DNA of 64,000 bases from a virus. Its lineage: Duplodnaviria; Heunggongvirae; Uroviricota; Caudoviricetes. Where the stretch lies: IMG/VR virus record IMGVR_UViG_3300044675_001501, positions 1 to 64,000 of that record; one strand, written 5' to 3'. Within the stretch, counting starts at the first letter, position 1. Each line of letters starts with the position of its first letter. Made by a program: the position numbers and the translations under genes. Shown in pieces: positions 1,324-59,635 of the stretch. Below the pieces are notes generated by a model that made no database searches, was not told the DNA's origin, and saw only the letters and a program-made list of their open reading frames with translations.

Positions 1324-1848
1324 TTACAACCTTTCTGATAAATCATCTTTTTCCTTTTCTGTTAAAAGTTGTTTATCAGTTTTCTTCGCTTCACCTTTTT
1401 CTGCAATATCAATTTTCTGTGGCTTCTTATGCTCAGGAATAATACGCTCAAGAGCAATCTTCAACATACCATTAATTAATTCTGCACCTTTGATCTCTAC
1501 TTGATCATTCAGCGCAAAGGTATGTGTAAAGTTACGAGTAGCGATTCCCTTATGCAACCACTCTAGTGCTGTGTTATCTTCATTTGCCTTACCTTTAACA
1601 ATTAGTTTGTCATCAGCAAATTCGATTTCTAGTTCCTGTTTTGTGAAACCAGCAACAGCCATCTCAACAACATACTTATTTTCTGCTGTCTTCTTGATAT
1701 TGAATGGTGGATAGTTTGGAACATTTTTGGTCAGATCGTCATGCATTTTTGCTAGACGATTGAATTGATCATCGAAACCGACAAAGAACTTGTCGAAATC
1801 TTTGAACTGAGGGTGTAACATTGTATCTGGTAGCCATTTGTGTACCAT
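1324..1848 (-). CDS. hsp20: small heat-shock protein (Hsp20 / alpha-crystallin family)
   Basis: 174 aa with an alpha-crystallin-domain-like core (…AVAGFTKQELEIEFADDKLIVKGK…IATRNFTHTFAL…). AAGGAG RBS 7 nt upstream. hsp20 is a hallmark of marine T4-like phages. Confidence 0.85.
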   Translation of the reverse strand: MVHKWLPDTMLHPQFKDFDKFFVGFDDQFNRLAKMHDDLTKNVPNYPPFNIKKTAENKYVVEMAVAGFTKQELEIEFADDKLIVKGKANEDNTALEWLHKGIATRNFTHTFALNDQVEIKGAELINGMLKIALERIIPEHKKPQKIDIAEKGEAKKTDKQLLTEKEKDDLSERL

Positions 1849-1870
1849 AATAGTCTCCTTATTAAGCGAG
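1846..1870 (-). promoter_or_regulatory. short hairpin sequestering the hsp20 Shine-Dalgarno (ROSE/fourU-like RNA-thermometer candidate)
   Basis: The minus-strand RNA 5'-CUCGCUU-AAU-AAGGAG-3' can pair CUC/GAG and CUU/AAG with a bulged G opposite the SD. The anti-SD contains UCGCU, which matches the ROSE U(U/C)GCU motif. Confidence 0.3.
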
Positions 1871-1919
1871 TTATAAAATTACTACCCCGAAGGCGTAGCA
1901 GTTTAAATAGTCGGCTTTT

Positions 1920-1961
1920 AACGTAGTTACCGACCAACTACGTTCCCATCCCGATTGGGAT
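1920..1961 (-). other. two adjacent perfect stem-loops in the regA–hsp20 leader (aacgtagtt/aactacgtt 9-bp stem; atccc-gatt-gggat 5-bp stem)
   Basis: Exact inverted repeats seen directly in the sequence. No flanking T-run, so they are not classical terminators. Confidence 0.5.
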
Positions 1962-1970
1962 CAGATTTAT

Positions 1971-2042
1971 TTAGCGATTTGCGATATACATTGTAATCTC
2001 AAATCCAAAACGCATATCAGTAGCTACTGGTTTTGTCCACAT
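1971..2042 (-). CDS. micro-ORF (23 aa, [23 protein letters not shown]) with a strong AAGGAG RBS
   Basis: ATG lies 7 nt downstream of AAGGAG in the noncoding tract where T4 carries gene 43. Coding status is uncertain. Confidence 0.2.
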
Positions 2043-2077: not shown

Positions 2078-2140
2078 TAATACTTATCCCTACTGTGGCG
2101 ATAAGTCCCTAAGGATTTTCATTAAAAACTCATAAATTAT

Positions 2141-2557
2141 TTAGCGTTTTTTTCCGATATTATACTTAGGAACTAATTCCCATTCATCTTTTTCTTTATG
2201 CGTAACTACTTTAATCTGCGACAAAGATGCTTTCGGCTCTGACTTAGATGGTAGCATAATCTTTAACAAACCCCAATCTTGCAAAAGACCAGCAATAGTA
2301 TTGCGTCTCTCAACATCATTGGATGTAATGTTAGATTCTTTACCGTCTAGAGCGAACAGCTCTTTAAAGTGCACAATAAAGTACCTGCCCTGCTTATGTA
2401 AGATATGGCAAGACTGGTATAATTTTTTATCTTTACGGGAAGCGATACCAATACGAGTTAGAGTCTCTCTAACCTTCAGGAAATTGTCTGGTTCTGGTAG
2501 GGTCACTTCTAGCATGGACTCTGGAGTCCAATCGTAATAAACCATTTCAACACTCAT
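2141..2557 (-). CDS. regA: translational repressor RegA
   Basis: Clear similarity to T4 RegA along the whole length (…FLKVRETLTRIGIA…KLYQSCHILHKQGRYFIVHFKE…EWELVPKYNIG). Confidence 0.85.
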   Translation of the reverse strand: MSVEMVYYDWTPESMLEVTLPEPDNFLKVRETLTRIGIASRKDKKLYQSCHILHKQGRYFIVHFKELFALDGKESNITSNDVERRNTIAGLLQDWGLLKIMLPSKSEPKASLSQIKVVTHKEKDEWELVPKYNIGKKR

Positions 2558-45418: not shown

Positions 45419-48400
45419 TTATGCCTGTGATTCTGACCAAGTAATACGAGCGGATGCTTGGAACGGAGCAGAACCATTGATAGTTGATGTATCAATTGGT
45501 GTCGCTGTAATAGTCAAGATATCTGGACCGTTAGGGAATGTTTCGTCACCGCCCAAGATCGAGTTACCTAGCTGAGCAACTTCACCAAGCTCTGCTGTTG
45601 TCTGAACTAAACTACGCTGACCAGTTGTTGCGCTAATAATAGAACCACCAGAAGCACGGAACGAGAATAACTGAATACCGTTCTTAATGGTTTCTCCTGG
45701 TGAATGTCTATAGATTTGCGACAATGAAGGAGCAGTATTATTAACGAAGTTACTGTCTGACAAATCAGAGTTCAAGAATAGTTTAATCTCAGATTCATGT
45801 GTCAATAGAACACCGCAAGAGTTTAGAGTCAGTTGCATTCTGTTAATGACATCTCGGAAACCAAGACCTCCAGTTAATCCGTTATCTACAGAAGGGGCAA
45901 GACGGATAGAAACTAGAGGAACTGGAGCAAGAGCAGAAATTGACTGATTACTTGTTCCACCACCAACAATAAAGTTTTGACCACTAGCGCCAACTCCAGT
46001 GATATTGTTTCTAAATCTTTGTGTTAATATGACTCTACTATTTGTGGTTCCTGCAACAATAGAAACAGATTTAACTAAAGTGTTTGCTGGTAAATAGAAG
46101 TTATTAAAATCATTCTGAACAGAAACACTAGAACCAACAATAAACTTAGATGAGTTAGCGTTAGTTACAAGGATAAAATCGTCTCCTCTGTTGATATTAG
46201 TGCTTGCTAATGATGCAACAATCTGAGTACCACCATTCGTTAGCGTAATAACATTAGAGTCAGCAGTAAACAAGTATGCTTTATCGTCATCGAAACGACC
46301 ATCCATAATAACAGAAGTACCCCAGTGGAATAGTTGTGGAGAGAATGTTGGTTCGCCGAATGTTACAACTTCGTAACGTGCTGGGATATTACCAGAACGC
46401 ATATATGCTTCAACGAATTCATTGTTGTGGATAAACTCATGGAAGTAGCGAACTTCACCACGCTGGTCTTTAACACCAAAGCGAATCTTACCAGCACCAT
46501 ACCAAGAGTAGTCAATGTATACCATCTGAATCTTATTAAGGTCTAGGACATAACCGCTTCTTCCGTTTCCGTCTGCCTTATCAAGAGTCCATTGATTTTG
46601 CGGTACTTTTGTATCAATTGTTTTGGTTCCAATAATGTTGGTTAGAGTTGATCCGCGATATTCTGGTTGAATATACATTTGAGTATCACTATCAATTCCA
46701 ATAATTTTGTAAGACATACCACGAATAACAACATATTCTCCAACACTTAGTTGCGTTGTAAATTTAGTTTTTTCTCCAGTGATCAAAGAAGAACGATATG
46801 TTGCATTAATTCTTCCAGAAATCTGCTGGATAGAACTTCTTCTAACGCAATATAACTGCTGTCCATCATACTCAAAGAACATACCGTTTTGAGTGTCAAA
46901 TAAACCACAGCGAACCGCAGCGTCTTTCCAAGAAACTAAGTTAAACTTAGGGAATCCATAAGCAACCGAAGATCCATTCTGTCTGTAGATAGGTAGTCTA
47001 ATTTGTTTTATTACAGTTCCAGAATTCTCTGTTATGTTTACACCCGCTTGAGTATAAGTGAATGTTGTTGAATCAACAACTGTTACTGGAGCAGAGAATC
47101 CATTGAAGTTTGCGCCAACACCAGTGCCAGAGATAGAGATATAATTTCCTGTTACAAGACCGTGACTTGATGAAGTAACAACTGTTACAGTGTCATTTAA
47201 TCTTGAGATAGAAGAAATTCCAACTGTTGGTGAACTTCCTACAACAGTGTTAGACAATGTCAAAACTTTAGTATTTGTATTTACATCAGTAATGATTGTG
47301 TTTGCTGGAATTGTTATACCGCCATATGTTCCTGCTTTTATTGTTTTTCCAACTGCAACACCATTCAAATTCCAAACTGAACCGATAGTATTAGTTCCAT
47401 TTGTCACTGTTCCAAATAATGGTGTGTCTTCATAAACATATGTAAAGGTATACTCGTCAACAACTTCTAAAATATCAAATTGACCATTATAACCATTATG
47501 CCCAGAAGCAACTGTTGCTTCTGAAACTCTTATTCTATTAGTTGTTCCTGGTTTAAATCCATGAGGCGAGTCAACCTTAATCTTAGCAATATTCTCATTA
47601 GATGTAAGCTCTTCGCAATCTGTTGGTGGGTTAAAGTTAATAGCAATAGAAACTTGAATACCCTTACCAGATTGATAGCGGAAATACTTACGAGTCTGAC
47701 GAACTACGCTAGAGTCAGGAACTAGACCAGTAGTCATAGTAACTCCACCATCGAATGGACGATGAGCAGTAGTAGCATTAGACTTAACGTAAATGTTAGT
47801 GTTAATAAAGTATTCAAAAACTGGTTGAATAGAAATTGCATTACCAGCAGCAAAACTTGAATTTAAGTATTCACTAATTGTCAATATGTTACCATTAATT
47901 GCAGTAATTCTGGTATTTGCTTTAAATCTTCCGTTACTATCGAATAGGTAGTAACCAACAGCTAAATCAGCAGCATTGTTTACTGTTATAGTTTGAGATC
48001 CAGTTGTTACTGCTGCGCCAGCTGATACTGTTCTATCAATAATCAAATTAACCTTAACAATTGCGTCAGGAGTAATAGGAGATCTCAACTTAATTGAAGT
48101 ATCAGACTTAACAGAAGAAATGATATAGTTAAAGATTTTACCTGGATTAGCTGCAGTATAGAAACGTAGAACGTCACCACCCTTAAAGTTTGTTAAGAAC
48201 TTAGTTCCGATACCTGTAATAATGTCAGATTCTTCAGTAACAACTACTGTACCCAATCCTCTAGTTAAACCAACAATAGAGTAAGTATCAAAGCTCTGAG
48301 ATCCATTAGTTCCAGCAGTCAAATCGATTGTTGTTGGAGTTGGAGAAACAGCCTCATCGAATGTTGGCGCCAACTTAACAAAGTTAGGGTCAACAACAAC

Positions 48401-51400
48401 AGCATAATATGTCTGACCAGAAACAAGAGCAGTTTGTGTTACACCATCTTTGTCAACATAAGGAGCAGTTGCGATTGGTGTAGCTGATCCAGGTCTATAG
48501 ATTAGAGAAGTTCCATCTCTGAACTTATGGTTCTGAATTCTAATGTAGTCTTGTGTTGTGTTTACTTCAGTGTTTGTAAACGACTTAGTGTTGAATGGAA
48601 TGTTCGAACTTGTCGCAACAACAAAAGTTGTTGGATCAGGAATATCCTCAATAACATAAACACCATCAGCATCAGAAGCTCTAGTAAACACGTGAGTTCC
48701 ATAAGACTTAAATGCAACATTGTCGCCAAGATTCTTATTAGAACCAGTAAAGACTAGAGGTCTTGATTCAGCTGTATACGCAACAGGTAGAGGTGTAGTA
48801 AAATCAAGCCTCAATGCCCAATTGGTTGCGGCATATGGTGGAATAGAACCTAAGAATGTTCTTGGTGGTAGTCTATTAAAGTTAATGAATGTTCCACCGA
48901 ACATACCAGCATGCGTTTGGTTCAGAGTAACAGTAATGTTAGGTGCTGTTCCGCTAAACGCTGTAACATATGTGCCAACTGGGAACGGACTAAATGTAAC
49001 TCTCTGACCAGCAGTAACACCACCGTGGATATCGCTGATAGTAACTGTTGTTCCACTAACTGCAGTTACTGTTACATTTTCTGGGAAGTTAGCCTCTGGT
49101 GAACTTACATATAGACCAGGAATAACAGCACCAGCAATAGTGCCAGTAATAGAAGCATTAGATAGAGCAACAGTTGGTGATGCGCCAACAGTAAAGGTGT
49201 TAAGGATTGGATCAATATCAGTGATCAACAACCCTGTTGCTGCAAGAGTACCAGTACCAGCAGTAACTGCAACAGTCATACCAGTGTTCAAACCAACCGT
49301 TGAAGGAACACGAATAATTGAAGTTGTTGGTGTGCTAGAACCAATACCTGCTGCAATAACAGTACCAGCAAGTCTAGTTGCTGGAGTATTACCAGCAGTA
49401 ATTACACCAGTTGTTGCGTTCGCAGTACCAGTAATTAGAGTTGGTTTTAGTGGGTTAGTTGTTACGATAGACTGAATAACTGTTTGTGTTGCATAGTTTG
49501 TTGCAGTCGCGAACGCACCCTGTCCACCAGTAGCTGTTGAAATTAGAGTTAGTAATTGACCAACTTTAAATCCTGTTGCGCTTGGAACATAGATATCGTT
49601 AGTTAAGTTAGTTCCTGTTCCGCTTGAAACACCAGCGATGAATCTAGCGCCAGATAGTGCAGTAGTAGGAGCATCAGTTAATACAAATCTATTGCTGTCA
49701 ATAATAGCAGCAACTCGAGTATTATTAGCAAGAGCTCCAGCACTGCTAATACCACCTGTAGTAATAGCACCAGTAGCCGTAACTTCAACTGCCATACCCT
49801 GAACTAAACCAGCAGTGCTACTTGTGTAGACCATGTTGCTGTTTAATGTCATTGTACCAGTAGCAGTTGTTAATGTCTTAACAGTACCAGCTACACCACC
49901 AGAAATAGTTTCTGAAACAGTGAAGGTAGTTGCGCTTAGGATCTGCTTAACATAGTAAACAGTATTTGTTAGGATAGTACCGAATGTTGTTCCAGTAAAT
50001 ACTACTGGGGTGTTAACTTCAATATTTGCAGTATTGCCAGAAGTTGTAATAGCATTTGTTACTGAAGAAGTTGCAGTACATGCTAGAGTGACAACTACGC
50101 TACCAGCACCAGCGATAATTCTCTGTCCAAACAATGGTGTTGATGGCGTTTGGTTAACCGTGAATGATTTTCCATCAACTGCAATAGATGTAACATAGGT
50201 AGCTACTGGAGTTGTTACTAGAACGCCAGCTGATCCTGCTACGTTAGTTGCAAGAACTGGAACCATACCAACTTGAAGACCAGTTGTGCTATCGCAGAAA
50301 ATACGATTACCAACAGAACCGAAACCACCTCTAATGATTGAGGTGTTAATTACTGGTTCATCTCCAGTTGTCGAACCAATACTACCAACACGATATGTGT
50401 CTGATGCAAAAACAGTTTCATCTAGATTGTTGTTAGCATCTTTGTATCCAACAATAAATGCAACAGAGCGATATGCTGCTGGGCTATCAGGAACAGTTCT
50501 CTTAGAAACAACAACAGAGCCTTGTGGAAGCCCAGCTGTAAATCCAGCTGTTGTAGCATTAACGTGGTGACCTTCAGTTAGAGTACCGCCACCAGTAAAG
50601 CTGTTACCCCAGAAAATATTACCACGAATATATTGCTGAGAACCAGAACCGTATGTTGTTAATGGAATAGCTGTATTACTTTGGGCATTAACCAAAGATG
50701 ATGCTAGTTGAATGTAGTTTGCATTAACTTTAATGATATAGTACAAGTTACCATTCGTTAATCCACCAATATCATTACCACCGTTGCTGAAATAGCGAAC
50801 TGGGTCGCCTGTTAGATATGGGTGTTGTGGTAGACGAATAGAACTTAGAATAGCCGAAGGTCTTCCGTCAGTGCTTGTATAAACATCATTACCAGAGTCA
50901 GCCTTGAACCCTCTAATGTTAGAGAATCCGCTAGTTCCAGCAACTGCACCAGTAGCAAGGAATACTGCACTACTATTAAATGGAACTGCTGAAGTTACAG
51001 CTGCTGCAGTCTGAACTCTATTTTCTGTATAGATGTTAGCAGTTGAGCTAACTTCGAAAGTATTACCTTCACCAGCAGTAGCTGCAAAAGTTGTAGTTGA
51101 TCTATTACCATCAACATACATATTTACCGCTAGTCCAGTATTTGACTTAACAGTAAAAGTATTAGTGTTTGCAGTAGCAGTAGCTGCAGCAACAGTTGAT
51201 AGGTTAGGTGTTGCTTGTGTTACTTCTTGACCTGCTTGAATCTTAAAGAATGTATAAGATCCAGCAGTAGTAGTCGCAGTATGTGGGGCTGTCAACTCAA
51301 TTTGAGTTGGAGAAAGAATTCTCTGAATTCTAGCGTCTAGATTAATACCAGCGCCAACAACTGGCATACCTGGTTTCAATTCTAATGTGTCAGGAACAAT

Positions 51401-54400
51401 CAAAGTGTATTGATTGATTAAACCTGCATTAGCAGCTAGGGTCTTAGTAACATTAGTGATTTGGGTTGCAGTAGCAACTGTTGCCGTTGTCGATACAGCA
51501 CCAACTATTCCTGCCGCAACAGCTACGTTATTTGCTCCACTATTAGCATCATGCCCAACTGAAGATAGAAGATCAGCTTGAGCAGAGGTTAGAGCCATAA
51601 CAACAATAGAATCTACGTCTATTGTTGCAGACTCATCTGATCCAGTTTGAGCGAAAGTGAACGTATTAGTTCCAGTTGTTGTAATTGTAACAGGAGATGA
51701 AGTATTAAACGAAGTTGTTGGCAACCCCTGAATCATTACAGTTTGTGAATTATTGTAACCATGAGCTTCTTCTGTTGTAATTGTAACAATATTAGAAGCT
51801 CTTACTGCGCTCTGAATATCTCTTGGCTTGAACAAGATTCTTGCTGTTCTAATGTTACTTCCTGTTACTGCAGAAACTTTTGACTCGAATGGAAGAACGC
51901 TACTAGACTTAACTAGATGATTTGTAACAATACCACCACCATTAGCAGAAGGAGTCTTCTTGTCTAATAGTCCATCAATTGCTTTCAAGGTAGTAAATGT
52001 TTTACCAGCAGGAACTGGGGTAATAATTGCACGTCTAGCTGTTACGTTAGCAAAGTCAACATATTTGTAAGCAATACCATACGTTACACCAGTCGCAGCG
52101 TTTTGAGTTACTGCTGGAGCAGGATTAGTAAATACTGGAATGTTAACTGTAATTGTAGAAGGGGAAGCATTAATTACTGGAGTTGCTGGAACAGTAGCAA
52201 CAGTCCAGAATCCATTCATATAAGGAACTGGATTATCACGAATAATAATCGAATCACCAACAGCCAAACTGTGGTTGGTGTTAAAGGTAATCGTCATTGT
52301 TGACGCATTAGCAGTTTTACTTACAGCAGTTATTCCTAGTTCTTGAGTTGTTGTTGAAACTCTAAAGTTGTCAGTATTAACTGCTTTAACGAAGTATTCA
52401 AAGGTGTTTCTCAAACCGTCAACAATTGGAGCACCAGCTGAGTCATAAATGACTGTTTGGTTTGCTAAGAATCCATGATTTGGTTTATAAACAGTGTTAG
52501 CTGTTGCTGAATACTTAACACCAGTAAAGGTGTGAGATCCAGTGCCAAATCCTCTTAGATCAATTAAAGTTCCTGTTGCTCTGTCTTTTAGTTTAAAGCG
52601 GTCGTCAGAAACTTTTTCAACTAGATAACCATTAGAACCAGCAGCAGCCAAACTTGTTGCGCTTGGGCTCTGAATTGCAGTATCTGTTGCAGTATATAAA
52701 ATGTAATCGTTATTTAAGAATCCATGATTAGGGATATAGATAGAATCTGATTCTGCTAAAAGAACAATAGGTGTAATGAACACCTCACCATTAGTTCTAG
52801 CTCCAGGTGTAACTAGAGGATTTGCTGGTCCTGTTGAGAATGTTAAATCAAATCCAGAATTTGTTACAGTTCTAACAAAATAAATTGTGTGAGCAGTATT
52901 ATTAGTTGTTGCATCAGTAGCATTTGTTACTGTAGTATTGGCAAGAGCGCCATTAGCTGTATTATTTGTTACAATAAACGCATCACCAGCAGCAAGACCA
53001 TAAGGGACTCCGCTAACCGATGCATTTAATGTCATAACACTTCCAGCAGAACTTACGAATCTGAAGGATCTTGTTGCTACAAACTTTCTACCCTCAAGAA
53101 TAGTTCCAGTGTTTAGAACAACCCTAGCATTAGAGTTTGTCTGGCTGTATACTGTAGGTAGAGCTGTTGCTAATAAAGCAAAATTATCATCGTCGATTGG
53201 ATAAACGAAATAATTTCTAGATGCTGTTAAAGCAGCTGGGAATGTGTTTCCTGGTGGATTATAGAACCATAGAGCATCACCAAGAGCATATCCGTGACTT
53301 GGTACATTAAAGCAAGAAACTCTAATATTTGGCTGTAGGTTTGCTGCTGTTCCAGGATTGTCAGAGAATGTAATCTTCTGACCATGAGTAATGTTAGCGT
53401 TAATGTTAGCGCTAATTTGAACAGTAACAAAGTTATTTACATCTGGCGCACCAACTGTGTTAACTGTAGCATTGGTTGGGATACCAGTTCCGCTAACAAC
53501 CATTCCAGGATAAATCTGTTTATCGTATAGAGTAGCTTTAAATGTCAACTGGTTTGTCGAACCGCTTGCTCTTGTGCCGCCAGAAAAACCAGAAAGATCA
53601 AGAGCTCTTGTTTCCTGATAAGCGAGAGCACTAATAGATGAATTTCTATCATATGCCCAACCAGCATCAACAACAGAAATTGACGATACACTAGAACCTG
53701 TTACTGTTGTTGAGAACACTGCTGGAGCTGCTGAAAATCTTTGAGCAGTTCCGACGCCACCAGAGGTATATGTAATTACGTTGGTGTTATTTAATGCATC
53801 ATTTCTAGTTGGGTGTAACTGAATTGTTGTTGCTGATAGATTTCTAACATATAAACTTAAACTACTTGCGATGAATACATTTCCTGGCAAGAATCTACCA
53901 GTAGCGTTGTTAAAACAACCAGAACCAATATTAGTAAACTTGATGAAGTTTCCACGTAGAGCATCTGAGTATGTAGCAGCAAGTCTAAAATTATCCGCAT
54001 CAATTCTAATTACAAAATACGGAGTAGAATCAGTTAGACCACCAATAACTGCTAGTGCTGGAGAGTTAGCGTTAACTGTTCCAGAAGCAGTTACAACTCT
54101 TCTGTAATAAACTCTATCTCCAGTAACAAATCCGTGATCATCAGTTCTGATGATGCTTGTTTGAGAAGAGATAGAAGCTGCGTACCAAGCAGTAGTAGCA
54201 TTAAAACTAATACCTGTTGAAAGGTTATAAGGGAACTCAATAACAATTGTTAAGATATTGTTTTGAATTTCATAAGAAGAAATTCTAGTTCCTTCTGGTG
54301 TTAATAATGTAGGAGCTGTTGTAGTCGTAGCGCTAATAGACCAAAGTCTTAATTCCTGACCAATTTCAATCTTACCATAATAAGATAATGGATCACAAGT

Positions 54401-55813
54401 AATTAAAGCTGTCTTTGCGCCGACGCTTGCGCCACCGAAACTAGCGCCAGTACCAAATGCAGCTGGAGAATATCCAACTTGACCATCAACAACACTTGCT
54501 TCGCCCATAAAACGACCATTAGATGCCCAGCTGTATGGATCTCTAATTACAGGTGTGCTACCGATAACTGGGTTAATATTCGCGCCTTCCATGTGATACT
54601 CGACACGATCACCAGTATTAAATGTATGAGTAGATGTAGTAATTCTACCAGCATTAGCACCAGTTCCAAGAGTAACACCACCTGCAGTAAATGTAATAGA
54701 GTTTACGTTTGCTGTTGTGCTTCCACTAAAGAATGGGACAGCAACAGGAGCACTAACATAACCTGCGCCACCATTGACAATTCTTGCTGAAGAAATTGGA
54801 GCATTTAATGTAGTGTTGATATTGCTGTTGTCGAAATATAACGTACCCTTACCAACAAATCTGTATGGGGTTACTGATGTAATTCTGTAGTCTAATACAG
54901 ATTCACCAATAGAAGTTGATGTTGTTGTTTTCTCAGTTGTTATTGTATCATCAGAATTAAAGTTTTCAATAGGGATATCTTGACGATAGATAGCAACAGT
55001 ATTGAGGAAATAGAACGGTGTATTTAAAGAGAAACCGTGTGGGAATTTAGTTTTAACAATTAGATGTGATGGGTTTAAACCATTTGTTTCAATATCAGCA
55101 ACAGTAATCTGCGAACCAAAATAGAATGCGCCTGGAATAACTGCAGTATAAACAGTAGATAGTTCTAATGTTGTTTGTGGGGAGAATGTTAACTGATATG
55201 TAAACTGACTTGTGCTGATGACAGCAGTAACAATATAACCACCCTCGAATTGAGAGTTAGCCAAACCAGTAATTTCAAATGGGGAGCCAGCAGTTAATCC
55301 ATGACTTGGAGCTGTAACTAGAACAGTTGAGGAACCTTGTGTTGACTGAACAGATGTTACTGAGATTGCATTCGCACCGTTTCTTGAATAGAATGATGGT
55401 ACATTATTAACAAGTTTCAGAGTTTCCCATTTTGTGGTTTGTAAACCATATTCAAAGTCAGTATCGATAAGATTCTCTGGCTGAGAAATACGTATCTTAG
55501 AAACTGGATCGATGAATGGATCTTCAGGGCGAATTTCTGTTGATTCATTTTCAACTAGAACCTGAAGTGTATCGGTATTTAAAACATTAAGCGCAGCTAG
55601 AGACTGTCTAAAGACAAATTTAGTTTCATGTGTATCTAAATCGTATTCTCTAGTAAGAACACCAGATCCTTCATCCGCGAAGTTATAGATAATTCTGTTT
55701 GTAGTTACATCAGTAATAAGCAATAATCTTTGCAAGAGAATATTGCCATTGATGAAAATAGCATTATTATCTCTATCAATTCTATATCCTGTTGCTAATA
55801 GTTTCTTAGCCAT
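45419..55813 (-). CDS. giant virion structural protein (3464 aa), paralogue of the gene at 30558..39899
   Basis: Uninterrupted 10.4-kb frame. It shares the N-terminal attachment motif and the C-terminal ~650-aa module (…RQTRKYFRYQSGKGIQVS…YSWYGAGK(V/I)RFG…WGTSVIMDG(G/R)FDDDKAYLF…WSESQA) with the 3113-aa protein. Confidence 0.85.
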   Translation of the reverse strand: MAKKLLATGYRIDRDNNAIFINGNILLQRLLLITDVTTNRIIYNFADEGSGVLTREYDLDTHETKFVFRQSLAALNVLNTDTLQVLVENESTEIRPEDPFIDPVSKIRISQPENLIDTDFEYGLQTTKWETLKLVNNVPSFYSRNGANAISVTSVQSTQGSSTVLVTAPSHGLTAGSPFEITGLANSQFEGGYIVTAVISTSQFTYQLTFSPQTTLELSTVYTAVIPGAFYFGSQITVADIETNGLNPSHLIVKTKFPHGFSLNTPFYFLNTVAIYRQDIPIENFNSDDTITTEKTTTSTSIGESVLDYRITSVTPYRFVGKGTLYFDNSNINTTLNAPISSARIVNGGAGYVSAPVAVPFFSGSTTANVNSITFTAGGVTLGTGANAGRITTSTHTFNTGDRVEYHMEGANINPVIGSTPVIRDPYSWASNGRFMGEASVVDGQVGYSPAAFGTGASFGGASVGAKTALITCDPLSYYGKIEIGQELRLWSISATTTTAPTLLTPEGTRISSYEIQNNILTIVIEFPYNLSTGISFNATTAWYAASISSQTSIIRTDDHGFVTGDRVYYRRVVTASGTVNANSPALAVIGGLTDSTPYFVIRIDADNFRLAATYSDALRGNFIKFTNIGSGCFNNATGRFLPGNVFIASSLSLYVRNLSATTIQLHPTRNDALNNTNVITYTSGGVGTAQRFSAAPAVFSTTVTGSSVSSISVVDAGWAYDRNSSISALAYQETRALDLSGFSGGTRASGSTNQLTFKATLYDKQIYPGMVVSGTGIPTNATVNTVGAPDVNNFVTVQISANINANITHGQKITFSDNPGTAANLQPNIRVSCFNVPSHGYALGDALWFYNPPGNTFPAALTASRNYFVYPIDDDNFALLATALPTVYSQTNSNARVVLNTGTILEGRKFVATRSFRFVSSAGSVMTLNASVSGVPYGLAAGDAFIVTNNTANGALANTTVTNATDATTNNTAHTIYFVRTVTNSGFDLTFSTGPANPLVTPGARTNGEVFITPIVLLAESDSIYIPNHGFLNNDYILYTATDTAIQSPSATSLAAAGSNGYLVEKVSDDRFKLKDRATGTLIDLRGFGTGSHTFTGVKYSATANTVYKPNHGFLANQTVIYDSAGAPIVDGLRNTFEYFVKAVNTDNFRVSTTTQELGITAVSKTANASTMTITFNTNHSLAVGDSIIIRDNPVPYMNGFWTVATVPATPVINASPSTITVNIPVFTNPAPAVTQNAATGVTYGIAYKYVDFANVTARRAIITPVPAGKTFTTLKAIDGLLDKKTPSANGGGIVTNHLVKSSSVLPFESKVSAVTGSNIRTARILFKPRDIQSAVRASNIVTITTEEAHGYNNSQTVMIQGLPTTSFNTSSPVTITTTGTNTFTFAQTGSDESATIDVDSIVVMALTSAQADLLSSVGHDANSGANNVAVAAGIVGAVSTTATVATATQITNVTKTLAANAGLINQYTLIVPDTLELKPGMPVVGAGINLDARIQRILSPTQIELTAPHTATTTAGSYTFFKIQAGQEVTQATPNLSTVAAATATANTNTFTVKSNTGLAVNMYVDGNRSTTTFAATAGEGNTFEVSSTANIYTENRVQTAAAVTSAVPFNSSAVFLATGAVAGTSGFSNIRGFKADSGNDVYTSTDGRPSAILSSIRLPQHPYLTGDPVRYFSNGGNDIGGLTNGNLYYIIKVNANYIQLASSLVNAQSNTAIPLTTYGSGSQQYIRGNIFWGNSFTGGGTLTEGHHVNATTAGFTAGLPQGSVVVSKRTVPDSPAAYRSVAFIVGYKDANNNLDETVFASDTYRVGSIGSTTGDEPVINTSIIRGGFGSVGNRIFCDSTTGLQVGMVPVLATNVAGSAGVLVTTPVATYVTSIAVDGKSFTVNQTPSTPLFGQRIIAGAGSVVVTLACTATSSVTNAITTSGNTANIEVNTPVVFTGTTFGTILTNTVYYVKQILSATTFTVSETISGGVAGTVKTLTTATGTMTLNSNMVYTSSTAGLVQGMAVEVTATGAITTGGISSAGALANNTRVAAIIDSNRFVLTDAPTTALSGARFIAGVSSGTGTNLTNDIYVPSATGFKVGQLLTLISTATGGQGAFATATNYATQTVIQSIVTTNPLKPTLITGTANATTGVITAGNTPATRLAGTVIAAGIGSSTPTTSIIRVPSTVGLNTGMTVAVTAGTGTLAATGLLITDIDPILNTFTVGASPTVALSNASITGTIAGAVIPGLYVSSPEANFPENVTVTAVSGTTVTISDIHGGVTAGQRVTFSPFPVGTYVTAFSGTAPNITVTLNQTHAGMFGGTFINFNRLPPRTFLGSIPPYAATNWALRLDFTTPLPVAYTAESRPLVFTGSNKNLGDNVAFKSYGTHVFTRASDADGVYVIEDIPDPTTFVVATSSNIPFNTKSFTNTEVNTTQDYIRIQNHKFRDGTSLIYRPGSATPIATAPYVDKDGVTQTALVSGQTYYAVVVDPNFVKLAPTFDEAVSPTPTTIDLTAGTNGSQSFDTYSIVGLTRGLGTVVVTEESDIITGIGTKFLTNFKGGDVLRFYTAANPGKIFNYIISSVKSDTSIKLRSPITPDAIVKVNLIIDRTVSAGAAVTTGSQTITVNNAADLAVGYYLFDSNGRFKANTRITAINGNILTISEYLNSSFAAGNAISIQPVFEYFINTNIYVKSNATTAHRPFDGGVTMTTGLVPDSSVVRQTRKYFRYQSGKGIQVSIAINFNPPTDCEELTSNENIAKIKVDSPHGFKPGTTNRIRVSEATVASGHNGYNGQFDILEVVDEYTFTYVYEDTPLFGTVTNGTNTIGSVWNLNGVAVGKTIKAGTYGGITIPANTIITDVNTNTKVLTLSNTVVGSSPTVGISSISRLNDTVTVVTSSSHGLVTGNYISISGTGVGANFNGFSAPVTVVDSTTFTYTQAGVNITENSGTVIKQIRLPIYRQNGSSVAYGFPKFNLVSWKDAAVRCGLFDTQNGMFFEYDGQQLYCVRRSSIQQISGRINATYRSSLITGEKTKFTTQLSVGEYVVIRGMSYKIIGIDSDTQMYIQPEYRGSTLTNIIGTKTIDTKVPQNQWTLDKADGNGRSGYVLDLNKIQMVYIDYSWYGAGKIRFGVKDQRGEVRYFHEFIHNNEFVEAYMRSGNIPARYEVVTFGEPTFSPQLFHWGTSVIMDGRFDDDKAYLFTADSNVITLTNGGTQIVASLASTNINRGDDFILVTNANSSKFIVGSSVSVQNDFNNFYLPANTLVKSVSIVAGTTNSRVILTQRFRNNITGVGASGQNFIVGGGTSNQSISALAPVPLVSIRLAPSVDNGLTGGLGFRDVINRMQLTLNSCGVLLTHESEIKLFLNSDLSDSNFVNNTAPSLSQIYRHSPGETIKNGIQLFSFRASGGSIISATTGQRSLVQTTAELGEVAQLGNSILGGDETFPNGPDILTITATPIDTSTINGSAPFQASARITWSESQA

Positions 55814-55835: not shown

Positions 55836-56063
55836 TTATGCTAGTGCAACTGCAAGCGCAATTTGTAATGATTGTGGGTTAACTGAATCCCATCCCGATC
55901 CATTGTATACTTCTAATTTTCTTACAGTTTCATTATAGCGAACCTGACCAGCTTCTGGGCTCCCAGTTCTTTGTGCTGTAGTTCCTCCTGGCATATCAAC
56001 AACATCGCCTTGTAGTTTGATGTTTGATTGCAGAGAACCTGATTTGATTTTACTGATCGCCAT
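55836..56063 (-). CDS. small fibre-associated protein (75 aa) with a phage tail-fibre repeat-like motif
   Basis: '…TTAQRTGSPEAGQVRYNETVRKLEVYNGSGW…' resembles the recurrent tail-fibre motif. Hydrophobic C-terminus IALAVALA. Confidence 0.45.
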   Translation of the reverse strand: MAISKIKSGSLQSNIKLQGDVVDMPGGTTAQRTGSPEAGQVRYNETVRKLEVYNGSGWDSVNPQSLQIALAVALA

Positions 56064-56083: not shown

Positions 56084-59000
56084 TTATTTAGCGGACATAT
56101 AAGTGAAACTTAGATTCATAAACGCTGAATTTGTAAGAGAAGTGTGAGTTAGTGGAATCCATCTTCCTGTTAACAAGTTGGTATATCCAAGTCTTACGAT
56201 GTTTGAAGATTGTGGAATAACAGCCATTGCTGGTCCAAATTGTTCTGTTGATTCATCAAAGTTAAATCCAAAAGATTGCTGAGTAACACCATATGATTGA
56301 TACGGTAGACCAATAATAGTCAACTCACCAAGAGAAGTTCCAAATTGAATTAAACGAATTTGGATATTTACTGTAACAATTCTTCCAGTTTTAACATATT
56401 GACCAATATTATTTAGGTAGATTAACCCAACAGAATTTCCACCAATTCTTAATTGTGGAGTAAACGAACCAACTTCTTCATTTACGTTTCTACTTACTGT
56501 ACTAAAACCAAGATGTTGAATAGTAACTTTTTCCCCAGTAGATCTTGGTGTAACAAACTCGATAGAATCCGAGCTACCAAGAACAGCAACAGCTGTCGCT
56601 GCGACTAGAGGAACATCTCCAGACTGCGGTGTTACCACGACAGTTGGGGTATTTTCGTAACCTGAACCCTGATTCGTTACTGCTATACTTGCAACCCCAT
56701 ATCCCAGTCTTGCAGTAGCAGTTGCTCCGCTACCGCCACCACCAGAGAATGATACTGATGGAATGCTTGTGTAGGAAGATCCAGGACTAATAACTGTAAC
56801 AGCAACAACCGATCTAGCAAGTGTTACTGTTGCAGTTGCTGTTGTTGTATTAGTGTCGCCAACTTGTGGTGTAATTGTAACTTGAGTGCTTAAATTATAT
56901 CCAGAACCTGCGGTGTTAACTCCAATGCTTGCGATTCCATACCCAAGAACAGCAGTAGCAGCAGCGCCAGAACCATCACCAGTAAATGAAACTGTTGGGG
57001 CAGAAGTATATCCTGAACCTCCAGAAAGAACAGTTAGATTCTTAATAGAACCTGTTGATACTAGGTTTGCTGTAGCAGTTACGCCAGTTCCTGACCCACC
57101 TGAGAAAGAAATAGTAGGAGCAACAGTATATCCAGATCCACCAGCAGTAATTGTGATAGAAGCAACAGCAAAACCTAGTGTAGCAGTAGCTGCTGCACCA
57201 GATCCACTTCCAGTAAATGAAATCGTTGGCGCTGATGTATAACCAGAACCATTATTGGTAATTGTTAATGATGCTACCGCGAAACCTAGTGTAGCAGTAG
57301 CTGCTGCACCAGATCCACTTCCAGTAAATAAAATCGTTGGCGCTGATGTATAACCAGATCCACCAGCAGTAATTGTAATAGAAGCAACAGCAAAACCTAA
57401 AGTTGATGTAGCGACTGCGCTGGTTGTTGCTGCCTGAGCGCCAGTATCAGTAATAACAACTGTTGGCGCTGAAGTGTAACCTGAACCGCCAGCAGTAATA
57501 TTTAAACTAGCAATTGTGTAACCAAGAACTGCTGTAGCAGAAGCTCCATTACCGTCACCAGTAATTGTAATTGTTGGTGCTGAAGTATAACCAGTACCAT
57601 TATTTGAAAGCGTAATAGAAGCAACAGCATAGCCAATTACTGCAGATGCGGTAGCTGGGTTTGTAATTGTATCGCCTGGATCAGCAGTAATAACAACAGT
57701 TGCTGTGGTATAACCAGAACCAGCATTAGTGATGGTAATTCCTGTAATTGTTCCACCAGAAACTGTTGCAGTAGCAGTAGCGCCAGAACCATCTCCACCA
57801 AATGTAATTGTTGGAGCAACAGTATATCCAGCACCACCGTTAGTGATATTTACTTGTTTAATTCCACCTGTTGATGATAAGGTTGCAGTAGCAACTGCGC
57901 CAGAACCACCACCTCCAGAGAAAGAAACAGTAGGAGCATTTTGATAGTTAGACCCACCGTTGTTTAACGCAATTCTTTTTACGTTAGCAGTAGCAGATAA
58001 TGTTGCGGTAGCAGTAGCGCCAATACCAGAACCACCACTGAAAGAAATAGTAGGCGTAGCTTCGTAACCTGCTCCAACATTACTAAGAGTTAATGATTTA
58101 ATTACACCACTAGAAGCAAGAACAGCATCTGCTGTTGCGCCACTACCATTACCGCCAGTAAATGTTACAGCAGGTGCTTCTTCGTACAATGTCCCACCTG
58201 AAGTAACAGAAGCAGAAACAACGCTACCTGATGTTGCTAAAGTTGCAGTAGCAGCAGCATTGCTTCCATCACCAGTGAATGAAACTGTTGGTGCTGTTGT
58301 ATAACCAGAACCACCGTTGCTTAGTGTTAATGTTTTAAGAGCGCCAGCAGTAGCTAATGTTGATGTTGCTGTTGCTCCAGTTCCGTTGCCACCAGTAAGA
58401 GTAACAGTTGGCGCTGATGTGTAACCAGAACCACCACTGTCAACTGTTGCGGTGTTAACCGCAAATCCTAAAACTGCAACTGCGGCAGCGCCAGTTCCAC
58501 TACCACCTGTAAAGTCTACGGTAGGAGCGCTGCTATAACCAGAACCAGCATTATCTAATGTTAGAGATTTTAAAGAACCAGTTGTTGTTAGAGTTGCTGT
58601 TGCTGTTGCGCTTGATCCACCACCACCTGTAAAGGTAATAGATGGTGCTGAAGTGTAGTTTGCTCCTGGATTTGTTACAGCAACAGAAGCAATTTTACCA
58701 GTAGATGCTAGAGAAGCCTCAGCTACTGCGCCCTCACCAGCGCCACCTGAGAAAGAAACTGATGGTGGTGTTGTATAGTCATCTCCACCGTTATTTACCG
58801 TTACACCTTTAACAATACCAGTTGTTCCTAGTGTTGCTACTGCTGTTGCTCCAGAACCATCACCAGTGAAGGAAATTGATGGAGTCTGCTCGTAACCTGT
58901 TCCGTTATTTGTTATAGAAACAAGTTTTACAGATCCAGTAGTTGCTAGAGTAAAATCCTCAACAGGAGTTTGAACTTGACCATCAACCGAAACCAAAAGT

Positions 59001-59635
59001 GTGTTAATATAATTTTCTGGTTGTGACAGCGAGAAAGAAATTTGATTGTTTGTTGCGGTATGCTTATCAATAACAAAGTTTCTTAAATTCTCTGAAAGAG
59101 TTTCTGGTGTAACAGATCCAGCTGCAGGAACTAGATTATAAGTTGCTCCACCATTGTTTATTGCATAAATTACTGCACCAATATCTGGGATACTAGTAAA
59201 TTGCAAACCACAATCATATAGCTCTTGAATCTCTGTAACCAAACCAGAAGCAAGGAGAATAGCATTTTGTGATTCTACTCTAATGCTACTTGCTTGGAAA
59301 TCAGCAGAAGATGTTTGAAGAATATCAACATAACCACTGTTCTGAACGTAGTTGATAACAATACCAGAAGCAGCAGTTGCTGGTTGGTTGATTGTTCTGT
59401 TAATTTCAAAATCGTTAATCTGACCAGTCAGTCTCAAACGCTTTAATGTTACAACCTTGTACGCATCATCAGGTTGCTGTGGTACGTTCTCTACAAAAAC
59501 TGTTAGATTTCCTGGGTATCCACCTGGAACTGGAGTAGAAAGCAAAAATGTTCTCTGAACACCATCGCCCCTAAACTCATCTTTAGGTCTTGCGCCAGAA
59601 GAAACATCAGCTACTGTATTTCCGATATATGCCAT
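56084..59635 (-). CDS. repeat-rich fibre protein (1183 aa): T7-fibre-like N-terminus followed by ~25 tandem ~36-aa GYT-APT repeats
   Basis: The N-terminus 'MAYIGNTVADV…' parallels the 208-aa protein. The central region is made of '…[10 protein letters not shown](V/I)(S/T)FTG…G…ATATL…' repeats. Confidence 0.85.
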   Translation of the reverse strand: MAYIGNTVADVSSGARPKDEFRGDGVQRTFLLSTPVPGGYPGNLTVFVENVPQQPDDAYKVVTLKRLRLTGQINDFEINRTINQPATAASGIVINYVQNSGYVDILQTSSADFQASSIRVESQNAILLASGLVTEIQELYDCGLQFTSIPDIGAVIYAINNGGATYNLVPAAGSVTPETLSENLRNFVIDKHTATNNQISFSLSQPENYINTLLVSVDGQVQTPVEDFTLATTGSVKLVSITNNGTGYEQTPSISFTGDGSGATAVATLGTTGIVKGVTVNNGGDDYTTPPSVSFSGGAGEGAVAEASLASTGKIASVAVTNPGANYTSAPSITFTGGGGSSATATATLTTTGSLKSLTLDNAGSGYSSAPTVDFTGGSGTGAAAVAVLGFAVNTATVDSGGSGYTSAPTVTLTGGNGTGATATSTLATAGALKTLTLSNGGSGYTTAPTVSFTGDGSNAAATATLATSGSVVSASVTSGGTLYEEAPAVTFTGGNGSGATADAVLASSGVIKSLTLSNVGAGYEATPTISFSGGSGIGATATATLSATANVKRIALNNGGSNYQNAPTVSFSGGGGSGAVATATLSSTGGIKQVNITNGGAGYTVAPTITFGGDGSGATATATVSGGTITGITITNAGSGYTTATVVITADPGDTITNPATASAVIGYAVASITLSNNGTGYTSAPTITITGDGNGASATAVLGYTIASLNITAGGSGYTSAPTVVITDTGAQAATTSAVATSTLGFAVASITITAGGSGYTSAPTILFTGSGSGAAATATLGFAVASLTITNNGSGYTSAPTISFTGSGSGAAATATLGFAVASITITAGGSGYTVAPTISFSGGSGTGVTATANLVSTGSIKNLTVLSGGSGYTSAPTVSFTGDGSGAAATAVLGYGIASIGVNTAGSGYNLSTQVTITPQVGDTNTTTATATVTLARSVVAVTVISPGSSYTSIPSVSFSGGGGSGATATARLGYGVASIAVTNQGSGYENTPTVVVTPQSGDVPLVAATAVAVLGSSDSIEFVTPRSTGEKVTIQHLGFSTVSRNVNEEVGSFTPQLRIGGNSVGLIYLNNIGQYVKTGRIVTVNIQIRLIQFGTSLGELTIIGLPYQSYGVTQQSFGFNFDESTEQFGPAMAVIPQSSNIVRLGYTNLLTGRWIPLTHTSLTNSAFMNLSFTYMSAK
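57140..57410 (-). repeat. near-identical 111-bp tandem DNA repeats inside the 1183-aa gene
   Basis: 57171-57248 and 57282-57359 are identical except for 1 nt, with a third partial unit either side. Period is 111 bp (37 codons). Confidence 0.8.

Follow-up and report, generated by a model that had tools for sequence, protein, structure and literature searches.

ROSE-like RNA thermometers are defined by a U(U/C)GCU sequence that pairs imperfectly with a gene's Shine-Dalgarno (SD) motif and leaves a predicted bulged G; they occupy the 5′ UTR immediately ahead of the gene under their control, classically one for a small heat-shock protein, and allow translation to rise with temperature, the bulged G being required for induction (PMC11342760). 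The ROSE_3 elements of Pseudomonas ibpA consist of two short hairpins in front of a gene for an IbpA-type small heat-shock protein, an arrangement shared with the phage leader described here. The enterobacterial ibpA elements (ROSE_2; the Salmonella leader reads UUCUCGCUGAUUUCAGGAG) and the classical ROSE elements of rhizobial hspA and other genes contain the same SD hairpin with U(U/C)GCU and a bulged G, and regulate the same class of gene. Their upstream hairpins differ from those of the phage element, the classical type having three to four hairpins in total. FourU thermometers (Salmonella agsA, SPbeta prophage blyA and a sigma70 gene of gut Caudoviricetes) likewise occlude the SD in a short, weak hairpin, and this type accounts for some of the few RNA thermometers that have been reported from phages to date (PMC11182007).

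In 2024 three phage RNA thermometers were counted, on lambda cIII, on SPbeta blyA and on the sigma70 gene of a gut phage; ROSE-type elements and heat-shock genes are not among them (PMC11182007). In lambda cIII, translation initiation on a phage mRNA is set by a temperature-sensitive alternative structure (cited in PMC11182007). This system differs from the present one in using two alternative global folds and in having no association with a heat-shock gene. Its logic is also opposite, as lower or physiological temperature favours translation. Phage RNA thermometers are regarded as rare. T4-like phages are known to mask SD sequences for temporal control, as in the T4 genes e, soc and I-TevI; masking of the SD by a 5′ hairpin, late TATAAATA promoters nearby and a T4-like phage background are all common to T4 e and soc and the leader analysed here. 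The gene concerned, hsp20, is a hallmark of cyanomyoviruses, and its role and regulation are poorly understood.

The hsp20 gene lies on the minus strand of the 64-kb stretch of phage DNA that was analysed (hereafter the window). Its ORF matches the Pfam family HSP20 with 63 bits, and its best NCBIfam family is IbpA, with 122 bits, which is under the equivalog cutoff of 212. The product is 47% identical to the IbpA-like protein of a Burkholderiales metagenome-assembled genome (MAG), L091. The features of the gene and its leader are collected in Table 1.

Table 1. Features of the hsp20 locus (window coordinates; hairpins, pseudoknot and promoter-like box as predicted).
Feature	Position	Strand	Description
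hsp20, IbpA-type small heat-shock protein, 174 aa	1324..1848	−	proposed regulated gene
hsp20 AUG	1848..1846	−	6 nt downstream of SD
SD AAGGAG	1860..1855	−	
Leader end and start codon	1870..1846	−	5′-CTCGCTTAATAAGGAGACTATTATG-3′
Hairpin II, SD-occluding, ROSE-like	1855..1870	−	CUC-G-CUU / AAU loop / AAG-GAG
Anti-SD of hairpin II	1870..1864	−	
Other parts of hairpin II		−	bulged G1867; AAU loop 1863..1861
Spacer between hairpins, A/U-rich	1871..1879	−	AUUUUAUAA
Hairpin I	1880..1900	−	UGCUAC-G-CC / UUCG / GG-GUAGUA; bulged G1894; tetraloop 1891..1888
Predicted H-type pseudoknot, upstream leader	1910..1944	−	A-rich linker AAAAG
Pseudoknot S1	1943..1936 with 1928..1921	−	ACGUAGUU/AACUACGU
Pseudoknot S2	1934..1930 with 1914..1910	−	GUCGG/CCGAC
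Conserved 5′ block, small hairpin	1944..1961	−	AUCCCAAUCGGGAUGGGA
Late-promoter-like box gcTAAATA	1968..1975	−	6/8 matches to T4-type TATAAATA; overlaps pqqA stop codon

The sequence hallmarks of published ROSE-like elements are found at this site, with UCGCU and a bulged G in an element that ends 6 nt before the hsp20 AUG. The proposed pairs of hairpin II are C1870:G1855, U1869:A1856, C1868:G1857, C1866:G1858, U1865:A1859 and U1864:A1860. When the RNA is folded over a range of temperatures, as the first-pass annotation had suggested, hairpin II is the local minimum free energy (MFE) fold throughout 15–42 °C, with energies of the 25-mer ranging from −5.2 to −1.5 kcal/mol, and this fold is the same as the hairpin which that annotation had drawn, with its CUC/GAG and CUU/AAG pairs around a bulged G. 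The presence of an SD-hiding hairpin before hsp20 is confirmed. The additional label 'fourU-like' does not hold, as only two U residues pair with the SD region and the FourU family of Rfam (RF01795) gives no match at the site; instead of a run of four U opposite the SD, the anti-SD contains UCGCU with the bulged G, and apart from the paired U1865 and U1864 it reads CUC-G-C.

The predicted stability of hairpin II is marginal and temperature-dependent, changing from −4.3 kcal/mol at 10 °C to −0.5 kcal/mol at 42 °C, and is similar to that predicted for the bacterial copy. The nearest-neighbour melting range is ∼30–45 °C. The phages that carry the element live in cool lakes and seas, which, set against this melting range, counts against a thermometer. 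A single occurrence of the bare motif CTCGCT-N3-8-AGGAG is present in the window, with 0.08 occurrences expected. Single-sequence thermodynamics was dropped as evidence, since the element is unremarkable on its own at −2.2 kcal/mol (37 °C), the 66-nt leader is not exceptionally stable compared to shuffled sequences (z = −0.73) and the predicted SD occlusion at hsp20 ranks only 7th–8th among the 27 SD-bearing gene starts of the window. It is conservation in related sequences, and not the single sequence, that shows the hairpin to be more than a chance fold.

These predictions bear on a rather unlikely alternative, in which the leader is a temperature-independent translational attenuator or an mRNA-stabilising structure, keeping hsp20 translation low and constant or protecting the 5′ end against RNases, and its ROSE likeness is inherited without thermosensing. 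Such a leader would fit the shallow opening predicted in context, where the pairing probability of the SD decreases from 0.92 at 5 °C to 0.73 at 42 °C and alternative pairing of the SD with the coding region is predicted at 30 °C and above. It would also fit the similar SD occlusion commonly predicted for other genes of this phage, and habitat temperatures that are probably far under the predicted melting range. A plain attenuator, however, could use any stem, whereas the bulged G and the weak design of 5–6 bp are strictly conserved and the element is associated exclusively with a heat-shock gene. In addition, in silico deletion of the bulged G yields a much more stable stem (by ∼4 kcal/mol, with −4.9 kcal/mol at 37 °C), and removal of the bulged G from a ROSE-like element has been found experimentally to impair heat induction (PMC11342760).

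The conservation of hairpin II is evident from related phage contigs. MAFFT alignments of whole leaders (A1 and A2) misplace the SD when the loop length varies, and therefore explicit parsing and model-based alignment were used instead. By explicit parsing, all 32 distinct leaders contain an invariant CU(C/U)-G-CU...AG-GAG, including the bulged G, while the loop varies freely between 4 and 7 nt (UAAU, GAAA, UUUA, UAACA, UAAUUUA and others). Hairpin II is also essentially invariant over a set of 87 distinct sequences, where it is 100% pairable; the sole change is from C:G to U.G, which gives UUGCU, the other allowed ROSE variant. The UCGCU at 1869..1865, put forward in the first-pass annotation as a ROSE element within the anti-SD, is indeed kept with its bulged G, being present in 84 of these 87 relatives and replaced by UUGCU in the other three, and is always complementary to AGGAG. 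The A preceding CUCGCU is nearly invariant as well (alignments A1 and A2). Compensatory changes are not observed in hairpin II because the SD side is fixed, and covariation can therefore not prove its proposed pairing in vivo.

The lack of covariation in hairpin II would also be compatible with ACUCGCU being an invariant site for a small RNA or a protein, such as the translational repressor RegA, with incidental complementarity to the SD, and regA lies immediately upstream in many loci. This possibility is very improbable, as the motif also occurs in bacteria that have no RegA (L091, Pseudomonas, Salmonella) and in phages whose hsp20 does not adjoin regA. The known RegA sites of T4 are A/U-rich and include the AUG. 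Moreover, the spacing between motif and SD tracks the loop length, such that the hairpin is always preserved.

Hairpin I, in contrast to hairpin II, shows strong covariation. Its consensus in the relatives is AYGCC-N4-GGGU with a bulged G. In alignment A2, 94.6% of the cells pair and six of the eight pairs change on both sides, a result reached by none of 500 shuffles; in alignment A5, 99.8% pair and both partners vary in five of the seven pairs. Since UAAUUUUAUAA follows hairpin I in the window, this hairpin could be viewed as an intrinsic terminator of the upstream gene with a U-rich tail, the SD hairpin being a chance fold in keeping with its unremarkable single-sequence statistics. The comparative data effectively refute this view. 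The two hairpins always co-occur, and only before hsp20 operons, where they lie behind promoters that would start transcription at hairpin I. The spacer between them measures 8–18 nt across the relatives and is not U-rich in L046, L061 and the bacterial L091, so that any function as a terminator is not a conserved one. Finally, the anti-SD is invariant although the Hsp20 proteins of the cultured phages sampled are only 30–47% identical to that of the window.

A comparison with Rfam reveals ROSE_3 (RF02523) as the only thermoregulator family matched at the site. The window scores 16.1 bits, and higher scores are obtained for the phage relatives L004 (17.7 bits), L011 (18.8 bits), C48C1 (26.8 bits) and Melnitz (34.1 bits, E = 9e-4) and for the ibpA-like leader of L091 (30.7 bits, E = 1e-4), but the gathering score of 43 bits is reached by no phage copy nor by L091, and 0 of 20 loci pass it. 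The cmscan alignments to ROSE_3 nonetheless include both hairpins and both bulged G residues, with the AUG in register. In controls, Salmonella ibpA was recognised as ROSE_2 with 94.9 bits and the P. aeruginosa sequence as ROSE_3 with 69.2 bits. ROSE_2 (RF01832) and classical ROSE (RF00435) gave no match at E ≤ 10 between positions 1300 and 2600 of the window. Weak Rfam matches to SAM-II (2131..2194), snoRNAs, IS009 and Plastid-clpP were judged to be noise.

In the reverse direction, the phage-derived covariance model R2 finds the ROSE_3 site of P. aeruginosa (L129, 536..588), which was outside its training set, with 17.9 bits (E = 0.002). The Salmonella element was not recovered by R2 (7 bits, hairpin II only), and R1, which has a narrow seed, detected neither the Pseudomonas nor the Salmonella element. 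ROSE_3 and the phage leader share AUGCC...GGGU with a bulged G in hairpin I and, in hairpin II, ACU(C/U)GCU, which leaves a G bulged when it pairs with AGGAG. The phage element differs in its shorter stems, with 5–6 bp in hairpin II against ∼9 in ROSE_3, in its more A/U-rich sequence, in the replacement of sigma32 promoters by late-type phage promoters and, in the window and some relatives, in the addition of a 5′ hairpin and a pseudoknot.

Within the window R1 and R2 give one match each, with 57.5 and 57.1 bits, respectively; the next best matches score 10.3 and 7.6 bits. R1 matches 77 of 80 related loci, and the three misses have no upstream sequence. Sixteen of the 18 cultured phages sampled (P-SSM2, Syn19, S-RIM8, HTVC008M, Melnitz and others) carry the element directly 5′ of hsp20. 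The association also holds when the gene is ignored in the selection. Of the copies in 120 IMG/VR viral contigs that were chosen only for the RNA signature, 113 could be assessed, and 112 of these stand at the head of hsp20 or of a short operon ending in hsp20. The next gene is hsp20 in 100, a 72-aa ORF followed by hsp20 in nine and a rubredoxin gene followed by hsp20 in two, while seven copies are interrupted by contig ends. No family of Pfam or NCBIfam corresponds to the 72-aa ORF located behind the element in some loci. A scan of reference genomes with the single protein found no close Hsp20 relatives. The 41 matches from a scan of reference genomes with the RNA signature approximate chance, with only ∼6 real after model and ORF checks, most of which look like phage contigs binned into MAGs.

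Hundreds of phage genomes, those of well-known ocean cyanophages among them, carry the element in front of hsp20, and a ROSE-like leader on phage hsp20 has apparently not been described before. Judged by sequence signature, hsp20 normally has a ROSE-type leader in the T4-like phages that infect cyanobacteria, SAR11 and methylotrophs, as well as in several jumbo phages. Thermometer-like control of a phage heat-shock gene had been expected to be unusual; such a leader is instead the rule among hsp20-bearing phages and is not peculiar to this one.

With respect to the AUCCC...GGGAUGGGA block, TATAAATA, NATAAATA or cTAAATA stands in the relatives where the window has gcTAAATA, and in phage copies a TATAAATA late-promoter box is located 2–6 nt upstream of hairpin I. 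Bacterial copies have a sigma32-like CTTGAAA...CCCxATxT where the phages have TATAAATA. By analogy, the box at 1968..1975 is a candidate promoter of the hsp20 leader in the window, and the promoter boxes suggest that the element is part of the 5′ UTR. The window's own box is imperfect (6/8), which counts against the thermometer reading. The copies of TATAAATA in the window were too few to define the late promoters of this phage (only two, no enrichment), and a sigma70 and terminator scan of the region found no promoter in the leader.

A transcript start within or just before the hairpin would allow temporal control in the manner of T4 gene e, a known device of T4-like phages: early read-through transcripts would be blocked, and late transcripts would have no anti-SD. 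The window spacer does contain an A/T-rich TTTATAAC just upstream of CUCGCU. The spacers of the relatives, however, read AUUUUUAA, AAUUAUUAA, GAAUCAACAUCA and so on, and none of the 32 leaders contains a TATAAATA-like box in the stretch from hairpin I to the anti-SD. Recognisable promoter boxes are found instead upstream of hairpin I or farther upstream, and late transcripts would therefore contain both hairpins, retaining the anti-SD, unlike those of T4 e and soc. The bacterial counterparts, moreover, carry the same hairpin behind a sigma32 promoter. The positions of the promoter-like boxes do not support a transcript that begins downstream of the anti-SD, the case that the first-pass annotation had named as a refutation, and temporal control of this kind has very little probability.

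Further upstream, the conserved 5′ block probably represents the 5′ end of the hsp20 transcript, as suggested by its position behind the promoter-like boxes. GGATGGGA is present in 30 of 55 distinct upstream regions of the relatives, typically 4–6 nt downstream of a late-promoter-like box, and in 17 of 115 independently selected leaders, compared to a background of ∼0.004 per 170 nt. The sole other exact copy of GGGATGGGA in the window, at 55888..55896, lies within coding sequence and is a chance match. An explicit pseudoknot search predicts the pseudoknot in 15 of 18 short leaders, with S1 and S2 sequences that differ between lineages; its score is reached by at most 3 of 300 shuffles in 11 of the 18, and the region matches no Rfam family. 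The small hairpin and the pseudoknot resemble stability elements, and in this respect they fit a temperature-independent, mRNA-stabilising leader.

Taken together, the hsp20 leader is most readily interpreted as a ROSE-type RNA thermometer of the short, two-hairpin Pseudomonas ibpA kind in a T4-like phage, to which we assign a probability of roughly 0.7. The ROSE character proposed in the first-pass annotation agrees with the leader in every feature that can be checked in silico. According to this proposal, a stable, covarying hairpin I with its bulged G would be followed by hairpin II, in which CUCGCUU pairs with the SD AAGGAG around the second bulged G; the ribosome-binding site would thereby be masked at low temperature and freed when the weak helix melts, such that warming would raise translation of the phage chaperone with no protein factor involved. 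For the element, joint acquisition with an ibpA-type gene from proteobacteria is the most likely origin. Purifying selection would since have kept the element, while the host sigma32 promoter would have been exchanged for phage promoters, mostly of the T4 late type. A host regulatory RNA would in that case have persisted across horizontal transfer, with its promoter swapped from sigma32 to T4-type late.

The phage leaders provide a large natural set of short ROSE variants, with stems of 5–6 bp and many different loops, for studies of threshold tuning. Since cultured systems exist (P-SSM2, Syn19, S-RIM8, HTVC008M and Melnitz), a ready-made experimental handle is available. More tentatively, the leader may be an ancient, near-universal hsp20 module in T4-like phages of the most abundant aquatic bacteria, moved from the sigma32 regulon to late promoters of the phage and adjusted to the temperatures of lakes and oceans, in which the 5′ hairpin and the A-rich H-type pseudoknot of this lineage would form a second sensing or stability module stacked on the thermometer; this wider scenario is possible but doubtful. 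The hosts concerned would be Prochlorococcus and Synechococcus, infected by cyanophages, and the hosts of pelagiphages and methylophages. If the scenario is true, water temperature would directly set the amount of phage chaperone during infection. If the thermometer is functional, it would couple phage gene expression to water temperature without a protein, in virus-host systems that are abundant worldwide.

The window comes from the genome of a T4-like myovirus (38.7% G+C). The minus strand of the region encodes sliding-clamp and clamp-loader homologues as well as a RegA homologue (the last identified by Pfam Translat_reg), whose DNA is similar to regA of pelagiphage HTVC008M, cyanophages and the methylophage Melnitz. 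Downstream of regA lie a PqqA-like ORF, conserved in 19 of the sequences retrieved, and then hsp20. Phage PqqA is already known from Lake Baikal, in T4-like phages whose predicted hosts are Methylophilaceae (PMC7678222); this precedent, together with the gene itself, suggests that the host may be a freshwater methylotroph. Two very large ORFs elsewhere in the window presumably encode structural or fibre proteins.

Features of the window discussed in the text
Feature	Position	Strand	Remarks
hsp20	1324..1848	minus	Pfam HSP20; best NCBIfam family IbpA, below equivalog cutoff; AUG at 1848
SD, AAGGAG	1860..1855	minus	
Hairpin II	1870..1855	minus	predicted to mask the SD
Hairpin I	1900..1880	minus	
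Predicted H-type pseudoknot	1944..1910	minus	A-rich linker; found in 15/18 short leaders
Conserved block AUCCC...GGGAUGGGA	1961..1944	minus	follows the gcTAAATA box
Late-promoter-like box gcTAAATA	1975..1968	minus	overlaps pqqA stop
PqqA precursor peptide	1971..2042	minus	23 codons, own SD; Pfam PqqA 37.9 bits; TIGR02107 38.5 bits, above cutoff
Very large ORF	45419..55813	minus	3464 aa
Very large ORF	56084..59635	minus	1183 aa, many GGSGY(T/E)SAPT-type repeats

The first-pass annotation had claimed a ROSE/fourU-like hairpin that occludes the hsp20 ribosome-binding site at 1846-1870. The sequence of these 25 bases (CUCGCUUAAUAAGGAGACUAUUAUG) bears out the proposed fold, with CUC/GAG and CUU/AAG pairs, a bulged G1867 and an AAU loop. 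Folding returns it as the local minimum-free-energy structure, but a weak one (-2.2 kcal/mol at 37 °C, -5.2 at 15 °C). Compared with shuffled sequence, the 66-nt leader has no folding advantage (z = -0.73), and hsp20 reaches only rank 7-8 in predicted SD occlusion among the 27 SD-bearing gene starts of the window. For the bare motif CTCGCT-N3-8-AGGAG, 0.08 occurrences are expected and one is observed. Taken alone, the window hairpin thus barely exceeds chance, and the case rests on comparison. Strongly predicted SD-sequestering hairpins also occur at several other minus-strand genes of the window (59635 region, 20950 and 41924); the one where the 1183-aa repeat protein begins, AUCCUAGAGGAU, for example, has a predicted pairing probability of 1.0.

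The comparison set comprised 80 IMG/VR loci encoding Hsp20 relatives with 58-100% identity to the window protein. All 32 distinct leaders directly upstream of hsp20 show the hairpin II pattern CU(C/U)-G-CU-[loop]-AG-GAG, with a freely varying loop of 4-7 nt (UAAU, GAAA, UUUA, UAACA, UAAUUUA and others), and the protein N-termini behind these conserved leaders are completely different. A second structure, hairpin I (AYGCC-N4-GGGU, with a variable stem and its own bulged G), is always present 8-18 nt upstream of hairpin II. In A2, an alignment of related leaders, 94.6% of hairpin I cells pair and 6 of the 8 pairs show changes on both sides; none of 500 shuffles reaches the observed value, and slid registers give 32-56%. 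In a model-based alignment of 87 distinct sequences these values are 99.8% and 5 of 7 pairs. A terminator followed by a chance SD hairpin, a reading that the single-sequence statistics might suit, is given a small probability. Hairpin II is 100% pairable in the same 87 sequences and essentially invariant: four of its five pairs never vary and the remaining one changes only from C:G to U.G. Covariation therefore cannot prove this helix, although invariance is expected, because one arm is the SD. The reading of the invariant stretch as a binding site for a protein or sRNA is given a small probability.

The narrow two-hairpin covariance model R1 has a single match in the window (57.5 bits, E = 6e-12; next best 10.3 bits) and matches 77 of the 80 related loci, the three misses lacking upstream sequence. 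In loci first scored negative the element lies 250-300 nt further upstream, before a 72-aa ORF or a 48-aa rubredoxin gene that hsp20 directly follows; this puts the element at the head of a small hsp20 operon. In an independent sample of at least 120 IMG/VR contigs chosen by RNA signature alone, the element is followed directly by hsp20 in 100, by the 72-aa ORF and then hsp20 in nine, by rubredoxin and then hsp20 in two, by a miscalled first ORF and then hsp20 in one, by the 72-aa ORF with no recognised gene after it in one, and by the contig end, with Hsp20-like N-termini, in seven. The intervening ORF of 71-74 aa recurs in many related phages (contigs L018 1266..1490, L004 1253..1474, L031 1266..1487 and others; consensus ...IDTI.G.KT.FV.TFV.NEE....LQTYIDAQ..FAK.V...), matches no Pfam or NCBIfam family and is presumably co-regulated with hsp20. 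Small rubredoxin-like genes (34 bits with Pfam Rubredoxin) are found repeatedly beside hsp20, in L062 (1325..1471) and L066 (1322..1471) and among the upstream genes of L030, L051, L048 and L057; they separate the element from hsp20 or else stand immediately ahead of the promoter box. The hsp20 of L062 and that of L066 are each preceded by their own, second CUUGCU...AGGAG hairpin.

Among cultured phages there is no close relative of the window Hsp20 (best 42-48% identity), yet 16 of the 18 sampled carry the element immediately before hsp20. Scores with the broader model R2 are 52.7 bits for S-RIM8, 51.0 for P-SSM2, 49.7 for S-CAM9, 49.5 for Syn19, 44.9 for S-CRM01, 37.6 for S-SSM5, 33.2 for Ralstonia RsoM2USA, 33.0 for Melnitz, 28.5 for ACG-2014f, 27.1 for C48C1, 25.8 for Sinorhizobium Phosso, 25.2 for Pelagiphage Mosig, 24.0 for S-RSM4, 23.7 for Pelagibacter podovirus HTVC115P, 16.9 for Pseudomonas MIJ3 and 13.0 for HTVC008M (clear by eye); those of S-RIM8, S-CRM01, RsoM2USA, Melnitz and C48C1 are partly by construction, because these phages are in the R2 training alignment (R1 scores 36.8, 25.3, 20.4, 25.4 and 19.9, respectively). 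S-TIM5 is without the element. The 18th record, named 'Pseudomonas phage Y7', is unverified; its sequence resembles host DNA and has a bona fide ROSE_3. Five low-GC contigs (L094, L104, L096, L118, L120) assigned in the reference-genome collection to MAGs of Aquiluna, Actinomycetota, Acidibacter, Acidimicrobiaceae and Erysipelotrichaceae carry the phage-type element and hsp20, some with TATAAATA boxes, and are probably mis-binned phage contigs.

Promoters were assigned throughout by consensus matches, not by mapped 5' ends. Mosig, HTVC008M, Melnitz and S-CRM01 have a perfect late box of the T4 type, TATAAATA, whose end lies 2-6 nt upstream of hairpin I; several metagenomic relatives have it there too, and bacteria have a sigma32-type promoter in this place. 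Temporal masking of the SD in the manner of gene e is given a small probability. Between hairpin I and the anti-SD, promoter-like boxes are absent from all relatives; the first-pass annotation had named a transcript start downstream of the anti-SD as evidence against its hairpin, and the predicted boxes point the other way. The leader is longer in the window and in roughly half of its close relatives; there a late-promoter-like box is followed by a conserved block and then a predicted pseudoknot. Both pseudoknot helices are lineage-specific in sequence (S2 is GUCGG/CCGAC in the window, elsewhere GGAGGU/ACCUUC, GCAGU/ACUGC, UGGUAG/CUACCA or UGACGG/CCGUCA). This module matches no Rfam family and is optional (17 of 115 independent leaders), yet strongly enriched there.

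The ROSE reading of the first-pass annotation is borne out in that the window has the structural parts of the published ROSE-like definition, a U(U/C)GCU motif in imperfect pairing with the SD and a predicted bulged G (PMC11342760). The only Rfam thermoregulator family matched at the site is ROSE_3 (RF02523), the short type known from Pseudomonas ibpA, with which both hairpins, both bulges and the AUG align. The scores (window 16.1 bits, L004 17.7, related contig L011 18.8, C48C1 26.8, Melnitz 34.1 with E = 9e-4) all stay below the gathering score of 43, which none of 20 loci passes; controls behaved as expected (Salmonella ibpA 94.9 bits on ROSE_2, P. aeruginosa 69.2 on ROSE_3). By Rfam's own threshold the phage element is outside RF02523. 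Reciprocally, R2, built from phage elements, finds the P. aeruginosa ROSE_3 site, which was outside its training (17.9 bits, E = 0.002), but not the Salmonella ROSE_2 element. In the Salmonella ibpA-ibpB intergenic region (L131 1259..1364) weak second matches just upstream of ibpB (ROSE_2 22.5, R2 14.9 bits) are consistent with a separate structure there. An RNA-signature scan of reference genomes gave 41 matches, about the chance expectation and mostly chance, and yielded L091, a Burkholderiales MAG contig (52% G+C) with ordinary chromosomal neighbours. Here both hairpins stand after a sigma32-like promoter and before a 151-aa IbpA-like gene; the leader scores 30.7 bits on ROSE_3 (E = 1e-4), and the protein is the nearest to the window Hsp20 in the panel compared (47% identity). 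From these sequence comparisons we conclude that the phage element is a divergent relative of short ROSE-like leaders.

Hairpin II alone has predicted stabilities of -4.3, -3.1, -1.1 and -0.5 kcal/mol at 10, 20, 37 and 42 °C, the range of the bacterial copy, and removal of the bulged G in silico gives -4.9 kcal/mol at 37 °C; as modelled, it is a marginal, bulge-weakened ROSE design. In a published ROSE-like element, heat induction is impaired once the bulged G is deleted, and the SD stem can be enough by itself (PMC11342760). In the full leader predicted SD pairing drops only a little, from 0.92 at 5 °C to 0.73 at 42 °C, and alternative SD pairing with the coding region is predicted from 30 °C upward. 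Such behaviour might also fit a conserved leader that attenuates translation or stabilises the mRNA independently of temperature, which we regard as unlikely. Nearest-neighbour models perform poorly on ROSE stems, which hold non-canonical pairs (PMC11342760), and folding predictions therefore neither prove nor disprove thermosensing. On comparative and modelling grounds, we put the probability that the leader is a functional ROSE-like thermometer at roughly 0.7.

Full-text literature searches, with most subscription journals outside their scope, gave nothing that ties phage or cyanophage hsp20 to an RNA thermometer or ROSE, and a 2024 paper names no phage thermometers other than lambda cIII, SPbeta blyA and a sigma70 gene of a gut phage (PMC11182007). 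The element adds a new branch, carried by phages, to an established type of regulator; it is not a new mechanism.
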